Shown: in pieces, positions 51,817 to 52,734 of the stretch | Layout of the letters: every line of letters starts with the position of its first letter | How positions within the stretch are numbered: the first letter of the stretch is position 1 | Assembly (NCBI GenBank): GCA_040905385.1 | Contig: JBBDRP010000002.1 | Coordinates: 395,526 to 459,525, forward strand | Direction: 5' to 3' | Length of the DNA: 64,000 nt | Source: Minisyncoccota bacterium | GTDB lineage: Bacteria; Patescibacteriota; Minisyncoccia; Phycocordibacterales; SW-6-46-9 | Notes under the pieces: generated by a model | What the model was told of the DNA's origin: nothing | Seen by the model: the letters and a program-made list of their open reading frames with translations, nothing else | Databases searched by the model: none | Position numbers and translations under genes: made by a program

Positions 51817-52734
51817 TTAGTCGTCTATTTCGAGGTCAAGGTCAAGTAAGTACTCAACAGCGTCAGTTACGATCGGCATAATATCGTCGTAAAAATTAAG
51901 ATCCACAATCTCTGTAAGCGGAAACCACTTAGCATCGTCAAGACCACCTTTATCCTTAGGAAGCTGTAGCTTTCCGTAGTCTGCCGAGGCCAGATAGTAG
52001 GTCACCTGTTTGCGGATCTTGCCTTTGTCCGGATCAGCGGCAACGTACTCATTTTCACCTAGTTTATTTTCCAGCGTTATTTCTAAACCAATTTCTTCCT
52101 CAACCTTGCGCTGAATCTCCTCTCTTGTGTCTTCACTATCAAGGTGTCCTTTTGACAGCGTCCAGTGTCCAAAAACGTCATGCACAAGCGCAAGTTCGAT
52201 GTTACCGTTGTTTTCAGCGTAGACCACTGCCCCACCCAGCCGCTCGATTGGCATTTCTTCGTACGGAATATCCTTGATATTACTGGCCGAGCTTTGATCC
52301 TTTTCTGGCTCCCCGATTTCCTTGTAAACAGCCCCGATTACGCCGTTCACAAAGGAACCACTAGCATCACCTCCGTACCCCTTCGCCAGCTCAATTGCCT
52401 CATTAATAGCAACTTTTGGTGGAACATCTTCACGGTCTGCATACAGTAGTTCAAACAGGCCAATACGCAGAATATTACGATCAACCGTCGTAATTTTTTC
52501 CAGTGGCCAGTGTGGTGCCGCTGATGAAATAACTTCATTAAGATCTTCGAGATGCTCAACAACACCATTGAGAAGTTCGTATATATATGAGTAGTCCTCA
52601 AGACCAGGTGCAAACTCGTAAGCATTGCGCTCTAGTGCGGATAATAGCTCGGGCTGCGTATATGACTGGCCGCGAAAATCCCACTCGAAGAGCGTTTGCA
52701 TTACTACTGAGCGTGAGACATGTCGATTTGCCAT
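51817..52734 (-). CDS. nusB: NusB antitermination factor fused to a C-terminal Nudix hydrolase domain
   Basis: Residues about 1-140: [46 protein letters not shown] (NusB). Residues about 170-300: [22 protein letters not shown], a near-canonical Nudix box (GX4EX7RKUXEEXGU). Confidence 0.7.
   Translation of the reverse strand: [305 protein letters not shown]

Follow-up and report, generated by a model that had tools for sequence, protein, structure and literature searches.

The transcription antitermination factor NusB is normally a core protein made of a single domain of about 140 amino acids (aa). In a Minisyncoccota bacterium (assembly GCA_040905385.1, contig JBBDRP010000002.1) one gene, here written nusB::nudix, encodes a NusB domain that is followed by a conserved linker and a 143-aa Nudix domain. 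The gene lies in a stretch of 64,000 nucleotides (nt), positions 395,526 to 459,525 of the forward strand, which is the whole of what was analysed and is called the window below. Is this fusion real, and what would a Nudix domain do on an antitermination factor? Both domains come from well-known families; the new part is their fusion across a whole clade, which is under selection. The best explanation is that this is the nusB gene of the organism and that its product has gained, at the C-terminus, a Nudix domain from the ApnA-hydrolase branch. Its role can be named only tentatively. From the sequence, we give a probability of about 0.45 to the Nudix domain being a binding module for an adenine polyphosphate or an RNA 5' end, tethered to the ribosomal RNA (rRNA) antitermination complex and with weak or no hydrolysis in this lineage.

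The fusion protein, its distribution and its gene block

The gene and its parts are the following, all on the minus strand.

51817..52734 (-): nusB::nudix, a complete open reading frame (ORF) of 305 aa plus stop, with its ATG at 52734 (ORF list, both Pfam domains)
52315..52734 (-): NusB domain, aa 1-140 (TIGR01951, NusB matches in the PDB, Foldseek)
52249..52314 (-): inter-domain linker, aa 141-162, of low predicted confidence, with conserved motifs G-E-P-x-K-D and P-Y-E-E-M-P
51820..52248 (-): Nudix-fold domain of the ApnA-hydrolase type, aa 163-305, with an acidic tail at its end (PF00293, profile, Foldseek)
52084..52149 (-): degenerate Nudix box, aa 196-217, GX4EX7RKVEEXGL (sequence and alignments to the CT771, Aquifex, Ndx1, C. 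elegans and human enzymes)
52105..52107 (-): codon AAG of Lys210, in the place of the metal-binding Glu in the RE pair (sequence and alignments)

A preliminary description of this stretch had called the gene a NusB fused to a Nudix hydrolase domain and had proposed a domain search. Both families are found above their Pfam cut-offs within the single ORF: PF01029 (NusB) at aa 7-138 with 116 bits (cut-off 23.1) and PF00293 (NUDIX) at aa 174-279 with 42.7 bits (cut-off 21.1). The peptides it had quoted are present in the protein, and the N-terminus MANRH.SR matches the family consensus.

The N-terminal half passes the NCBIfam equivalog model for NusB (TIGR01951, 122.4 bits, cut-off 88.35), and its matches among solved structures are the NusB proteins of T. 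maritima, A. aeolicus, M. tuberculosis and E. coli (3e-19 to 1e-13). An AlphaFold2 model of the fusion protein, for which 55 homologues were the input, has a mean predicted local distance difference test score (pLDDT) of 84 and consists of a helical NusB domain, the linker and an alpha/beta Nudix domain. The NusB domain has seven helices within aa 4-140 (pLDDT mostly 80-95), and Foldseek aligns it to T. maritima and Aquifex NusB (1tzv, 3r2c, 3r2d) with template modelling (TM) scores, normalised to the target, of 0.84-0.88. F128 aligns with F122 of A. aeolicus NusB (AaNusB), which stacks on U8 of boxA, and D85 with AaNusB E81, which reads U8; F16 is at the position of Y18 in E. coli NusB (EcNusB), at the NusE interface (PMC3177189), a correspondence inferred from alignment offsets. 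All three residues are invariant in the 55 homologues. The protein thus has in common with the canonical NusB of E. coli, A. aeolicus and T. maritima the helical fold, the phenylalanine that stacks on boxA U8, the acidic residue and the aromatic residue at the NusE interface, and on these grounds the NusB half looks functional. A precedent for such a fusion is RsmB/Sun, the methyltransferase for m5C967 of 16S rRNA, in which a NusB-like N-terminal RNA-binding domain is fused to a catalytic domain that acts on rRNA. There the partner is a methyltransferase, whereas here it is a Nudix domain; RsmB models match aa 7-147 only partially (50.6 bits vs a cut-off of 319, NCBIfam), and the N-terminal domain scores as NusB proper.

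The two domains are joined by a linker that is predicted to be disordered, with pLDDT below 50 at aa 143-154. The predicted TM score (pTM) of the whole model is 0.49, which does not indicate a fixed orientation of the domains or a confident packing between them. In the family alignment G141, E142, P143 and K145 of the linker are invariant, and P157, M161 and P162 are nearly so. Aa 150-152 are basic (K-K-K) in most relatives and A-S-N in the window protein, which ends in the acidic tail LDLDLEIDD; the A-S-N linker and this tail may reflect an acidified, possibly halophilic, proteome. The closest named relative, at 75% identity, is "Parcubacteria group bacterium SW_6_46_9". An internal translation start at the conserved Met161 was considered and rejected: the GAAGAA upstream of it consists only of Glu codons and is unconvincing as a ribosome-binding site.

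The fusion is found far beyond this genome. Of the database homologues, the top 120 (58-92% identity) each have a length of about 300 aa; 118 carry both precomputed Pfam domains, and those with a name belong to Parcubacteria, Paceibacterota, Kaiserbacteria or Wolfebacteria. In a scan with one genome per species, which gave at least 600 pattern matches, 599 of the matches encode a relative of the fusion, so that it is encoded in at least 599 species-representative genomes, the named ones all from Patescibacteria/Parcubacteria lineages. When a distant fusion protein served as the query, Giovannoni-, Niyogi-, Sung- and Tagabacteria as well as Paceibacter were found in addition; the names of sequence clusters were uninformative for the taxonomy of the distant fused proteins. 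The fused protein MDI9325490.1 (P0199), whose box is degenerate throughout (KD..RV..QE), is deposited as "Alphaproteobacteria bacterium", and a mis-binned or mis-classified Patescibacteria contig is suspected here.

For the neighbourhood of the gene, 80 related loci were kept (Kaiser-, Adler-, Yonath-, Nomura-, Taylor- and Zambryskibacteria and further metagenome-assembled genomes of Patescibacteria). The preliminary description had placed the fusion in a conserved rpmF-nusB-rnc-smc block, and this holds. In the window the flanking genes are on the same strand:

52769..53062 (-): rpmF (ribosomal protein L32, PF01783), 34 nt upstream of nusB::nudix
51112..51810 (-): rnc (RNase III, Ribonuclease_3 and dsrm domains), which begins 6 nt past the nusB::nudix stop codon
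48773..51049 (-): a short SMC-like ATPase of 758 aa (SMC_N at aa 1-740), the last gene of the block

The same order recurs in the related loci, where RNase III comes after the fusion in 78 of 80, L32 upstream in 72, the SMC-like gene downstream in 68 and RNase HII upstream in 63. The block rnhB-rpmF-nusB::nudix-rnc-smc is therefore a fixed arrangement, in which nusB stands unlike the canonical NusB genes used for comparison. Since only 34 nt separate L32 from nusB in the window, and only 6 nt nusB from rnc, rpmF, nusB::nudix and rnc are probably co-transcribed.

It could be argued that two adjacent genes for NusB and a Nudix protein have been joined by a frameshift or an error in assembly, an explanation that the preliminary description had kept in view. 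Solely the rarity of the architecture outside Patescibacteria speaks for it. The ORF is continuous, and hundreds of assemblies made independently of one another contain it in its fused form, with 239 distinct fused proteins from independent sources among the matches listed, in addition to the species genomes counted above. NusB and Nudix are encoded collinearly within one stretch in all 80 related loci. The probability of an artefact is negligible, and the NusB-Nudix fusion is old and fixed in Parcubacteria (the Paceibacteria-type Patescibacteria of GTDB).

A related question, also raised in the preliminary description, is whether orthologs elsewhere are split into two genes. No evidence for split nusB and nudix gene pairs was found among the six apparently stand-alone relatives that were checked (P0132, P0156, P0161, P0264, P0270 and P0202). 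P0132, apparently a stand-alone close relative, starts at a contig edge, has rnc after it and is a truncated fusion, which is a further point against the artefact. P0156 is on a contig of 993 bp, and the fragment upstream of it is not NusB-like. The true stand-alone Nudix relatives P0161, P0264, P0270 and P0202 are found in unrelated contexts (phage-like; an island with SIR2, PLD and helicase genes; SNase-Nudix). P0161, a relative with a canonical box (locus L083, 5001..5453), has 39% identity to the window's Nudix domain, and its neighbours give weak or faint Pfam matches to an integrase and Phage_rep_O and a match to a DNA methylase, which suggests a mobile-element or phage context. Within the 64-kb window no second NusB or Nudix gene was found.

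The literature searched gives no description of a NusB-Nudix fusion, and a survey of the Nudix clan from 2017 is without a mention of NusB. In databases the fused proteins carry no other annotation than "transcription antitermination factor NusB", and the extra domain is thereby invisible to surveys that are based on annotation. Both domains are visible in precomputed domain tables.

A degenerate Nudix box and a conserved putative ligand pocket

The solved structures that match the C-terminal half are all of ApnA hydrolases: CT771, the Aquifex Ap4A (diadenosine tetraphosphate) hydrolase, Thermus Ndx1, the C. elegans Ap4A hydrolase and human NUDT2. A family profile compared with the PDB finds the Aquifex Ap4A hydrolase at 7.5e-15, CT771 at 5.8e-13, Ndx1 at 6e-12 and NUDT2 at 1e-10, and the top five profile matches as well as the top Foldseek matches are ApnA hydrolases. 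The TM score (normalised to the target) to the Aquifex enzyme 3i7u is 0.84-0.89; Foldseek gives a probability of 1.00 to many Nudix structures, the Nudix domain of NrtR among them. The next-best profile matches are Dcp2 Nudix domains (1.9e-8), and the match to Bdellovibrio RppH is weak (8e-4). The RppH equivalog model (NF001936-type) reaches 12.1 bits against a cut-off of 118, with E = 0.13 and over aa 176-218 only.

The window's domain has in common with the ApnA hydrolases (Aquifex aq_158, 3I7U; CT771, 4ILQ/4MPO; Ndx1; NUDT2; C. elegans), its best matches in both sequence and structure, the KG(H) motif, the specificity tyrosine, the second stacking aromatic residue, the lysine ligands of the P1 phosphate and the EE of the box. 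These enzymes are stand-alone and have the full box GX5EX7REUXEEXGU, whereas the window's domain is fused to NusB and has GX4 and RK. On its sequence, the C-terminal domain can be assigned to the ApnA-hydrolase branch of the Nudix fold while lacking the box that defines Nudix proteins. RppH and Dcp2, which act on RNA 5' ends, share the Nudix fold with it; it differs from them in lacking the catalytic RE pair and a significant match to the RppH model, and it would be NusB, rather than the Nudix domain itself, that brings the window protein to RNA. Related Nudix domains are also found in other architectures. Four such proteins (P0262, P0241, P0255 and P0214) include Nudix with HD_4 (HD superfamily), a sigma70_r4/DnaA_C helix-turn-helix with Nudix, an EamA transporter with Nudix, and a 577-aa protein in which a long N-terminal extension with a weak match to a cold-shock domain precedes NusB and Nudix. 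As a group, the other partners seen (HD_4, DnaA_C/sigma70_r4, EamA, an Endonuclease V fragment) are diverse, and they point to no clear function.

The preliminary description had called the Nudix box near-canonical, which turned out to be too generous when the domain was aligned to solved ApnA hydrolases. There is one residue fewer than in the consensus between the Gly and the first Glu, and Lys210 stands where the consensus REUXEE has its first Glu. In Nudix enzymes the Glu of the RE pair coordinates a catalytic Mg2+, so with R-K in place of R-E one catalytic, metal-binding glutamate is missing from the window protein. This is not a peculiarity of one sequence: in all 27 proteins of the window's clade (the window protein and 26 relatives with at least 70% identity) the RE pair is absent and the box loop is short. 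Among 200 fused homologues, 60 have RE at this dipeptide, 31 RK, 22 RV, 13 KK, 11 RA, 10 RI, 9 DK and 9 RS, and the remaining variants are less frequent. Position 210 has an entropy of 2.33 bits and ranks 110th of 134 in conservation within the domain. On a neighbour-joining tree it has undergone at least 58 changes by Fitch counting, against a median of 28, with at least 31 switches between Glu and another residue; these counts are rough. It is one of the fastest-evolving positions of the Nudix domain. More distant fused proteins are also without the first E of EE.

The full canonical box is seen in stand-alone relatives of 140-155 aa, and RExxEE is kept in 94 of the 119 proteins of a sister subclade (Giovannoni/Niyogi-type). 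The sister subclade thus points to an ancestral fusion that was probably an enzyme, a true hydrolase, and its members with RExxEE probably retain this activity. The simplest history is that an active enzyme was fused to NusB and that its catalytic centre then relaxed in several lineages, the window's included.

The rest of the domain has not decayed. Mean column entropy is 1.24 bits in the Nudix domain and 1.08 in NusB, which indicates that purifying selection on the one is about as strong as on the other. K195, Y230, K242, Y282, F188 and W191 have zero entropy in the 200 homologues, K195, Y230 and K242 show no change at all on the tree, and D284 and E214 have an entropy of 0.05 bits each. By profile alignment, K195, Y230, K242, Y282 and D284 correspond to K42, Y82, K89, F128 and E130 of NUDT2. 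In Ap4A hydrolases, K42, Y82 and K89 hold the P1 phosphate, the adenine is sandwiched by Y82 and F128, and E130 touches its amino group (N6) (PMC4734340); the Tyr downstream of the box is a recognised specificity determinant of ApnA hydrolases (PMC5389931, PMC2425470). Of the box itself E201, E213 and E214 are retained, with E214 and G196 nearly invariant. The adenine/polyphosphate pocket therefore appears to be preserved in the window's clade while the RE pair is lost. A box glutamate has gone within a multidomain protein in which the remainder of the Nudix domain is still under selection.

Possible roles on the antitermination complex

In the reading that we prefer, the Nudix domain of this lineage would mainly bind an adenine nucleoside polyphosphate. 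Candidate ligands are the free nucleotides Ap4A and ATP and, on the nascent rRNA leader, a 5' end that begins with pppA or is capped with Ap4 or Np4. NusB would hold boxA and thereby tether the Nudix module to the boxA/S10 antitermination complex, hydrolysis would be slow or absent, and binding might either couple rRNA transcription and maturation to the nucleotide status of the cell or hold the 5' end of the transcript. The adjacent rnc gene would fit such a setting of rRNA maturation. What favours binding or sensing is that the pocket appears intact and the catalytic pair decayed in a multidomain protein, as in other Nudix modules that bind and do not cleave. Such a role fits the conservation pattern of the window protein better than that of a hydrolase.

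Several of these modules are well studied. The NUDT9 mutant RILGEE and the NUDT9-H domain of TRPM2 (RILRQE) are inactive, and NUDT9-H still binds its ligand (PMC6461439, PMC4974056). CFIm25 (NUDT21), an RNA-processing factor of the mRNA 3'-processing machinery with RLxxEI, binds Ap4A with a Kd of 2.4 uM and ATP at 1.5 mM, in both cases without hydrolysis (PMC2425470). Non-catalytic Nudix domains are typically found within multidomain proteins (PMC5389931). TRPM2 NUDT9-H and CFIm25 have thus lost box glutamates and kept the binding of their ligands (ADP-ribose for the former, Ap4A or ATP for the latter), and the regulators NrtR and AraR use a Nudix domain to bind an effector. Like the fusion, all of these place a Nudix fold in a multidomain or multisubunit machine for nucleic acids or signalling. 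In TRPM2 the invertebrate forms of NUDT9-H are active and the vertebrate form is vestigial, a parallel to the subclades of the fusion. They differ from it in that they belong to other Nudix subfamilies with other ligands and partners.

There are also observations that weigh on the other side. E213, E214 and E201 are retained in the window protein, and as E214 may be the catalytic base in Ap4A hydrolases, a residual or altered activity is conceivable. Some Nudix enzymes are active with a shortened or altered box, such as YffH (GX4DX7KEX2EE) and NudD/Gmm (RLx2AE, with a different chemistry) (PMC5389931). RE is kept in 79% of the sister subclade and in 30% of the window's broader clade, which could mean that catalysis is the core function and that Lys210 is tolerated. 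Finally, the identity of the ligand is based on pairwise and profile alignments at 23-28% identity.

These points lead to the possibility that the domain is an active pyrophosphohydrolase here too, similar to RppH, Dcp2 or Ap4A hydrolases. Binding of NusB to boxA would then deliver it to nascent rRNA leaders, where it would remove a pyrophosphate or an Np4- or NAD-type cap, or degrade Ap4A locally, and thus license decay of the leader that depends on its 5' end or its processing after RNase III cleavage. Among solved structures the nearest relatives are without exception active ApnA hydrolases, and the Dcp2 decapping enzymes come next; the substrate-binding residues are kept together with the three box glutamates; most of the sister subclade has the canonical RExxEE; rnc is tightly linked, 6 nt away; and some Nudix enzymes are active in spite of a GX4 loop or a non-canonical box. 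An active enzyme is therefore the main rival to the binding role, and a serious one; we consider it the less probable of the two, given that the window protein has R-K and none of the 27 clade proteins has the RE pair, that the position of the Glu is unconstrained, that an equivalent change inactivates NUDT9 and TRPM2 NUDT9-H, and that the RppH model stays far below its cut-off. The preliminary description had speculated about RppH-like decapping or alarmone hydrolysis; for the window protein the clade-wide loss of the RE pair and the RppH score speak against this, and for the ancestral fusion and the relatives with a canonical box it stays plausible. It had also named a lack of catalytic Nudix residues as evidence that would count against its proposal, and this is partly what is found, with the Glu of RE lost and the loop short, and E201, E213 and E214 kept. 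Quite improbable, in our view, is that the domain has no small-molecule ligand at all and is purely a structural module for contacts with protein or RNA in the antitermination complex of Parcubacteria. Decay of catalytic residues next to invariant surface residues and linker motifs (GEPxKD, PYEEMP) would agree with it, and non-enzymatic Nudix domains for protein-protein or RNA contacts are known, for example in CFIm25. In the E. coli antitermination complex, SuhB, a protein with an inositol-monophosphatase fold, has a structural role. A structural role is made less likely by the nature of the invariant residues, which are those that bind phosphate and adenine in Ap4A hydrolases and not a new surface; G196 and E214 of the box are nearly invariant as well, and AlphaFold2 gives no confident packing between the domains.

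If the preferred role in binding is taken one step further, the antitermination and maturation complex for rRNA in Parcubacteria would have its own nucleotide-reading head: a domain derived from an Ap4A hydrolase and tethered by NusB, which senses Ap4A or ATP, or which grips the nascent leader at its pppA- or Np4-capped 5' end, where the ancestral form would have cut it. In this specific form we hold the proposal to be rather unlikely. If it were true, ribosome synthesis would be directly coupled to alarmone or energy status, a step that is not described for any bacterial Nus complex. What the fusion suggests, and what has not been seen in model organisms, is a direct physical link that would join the transcription and maturation of rRNA to Ap4A/ATP signalling or to the chemistry of RNA 5' ends. 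It is a permanent addition to a core factor, and it spans a whole radiation of ultra-small bacteria with tiny genomes. Within the fused family the Nudix boxes grade naturally from canonical to degenerate, and such a series could show an enzyme turning into a sensor, in parallel to TRPM2.

Other genes of the window

No rRNA operon was found in the 64-kb window. Two tRNA genes are the sole RNA genes detected with Rfam and ARAGORN, and hence there is no boxA leader here:

60527..60600 and 63373..63446 (-): tRNA-Ala genes with anticodons GGC and TGC

In the SMC-like gene at the end of the block (48773..51049, minus strand), the SMC_N match covers both halves of the head, and no hinge-domain family is among the Pfam matches. 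The tblastn matches to this gene in the related loci are about 2.2-2.4 kb long. It looks like a short, possibly hinge-less SMC that is typical of the clade. L32 (52769..53062, minus strand) has 97 aa and no cysteines, and a charged C-terminal extension of about 40 aa follows its Pfam core (aa 8-55). Between rnhB and rpmF there is an ORF of 207 aa (53160..53783, minus strand). Pfam gives no match for it, and tblastn (E<=1e-5) finds no counterpart in any of the 80 related loci; the ORF is apparently specific to this lineage and inserted into a block that is conserved elsewhere.

The rnhB gene itself (53897..54550, minus strand) is listed with a TTG start, by which it overlaps a divergent ORF of 1075 aa (54511..57738, plus strand) by 40 nt. 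From its sequence the latter looks like a DnaE-type polymerase. The true start of rnhB is probably an internal Met (MKKPTLHIGIDEAG...), where the Pfam match to RNase HII begins (aa 27).

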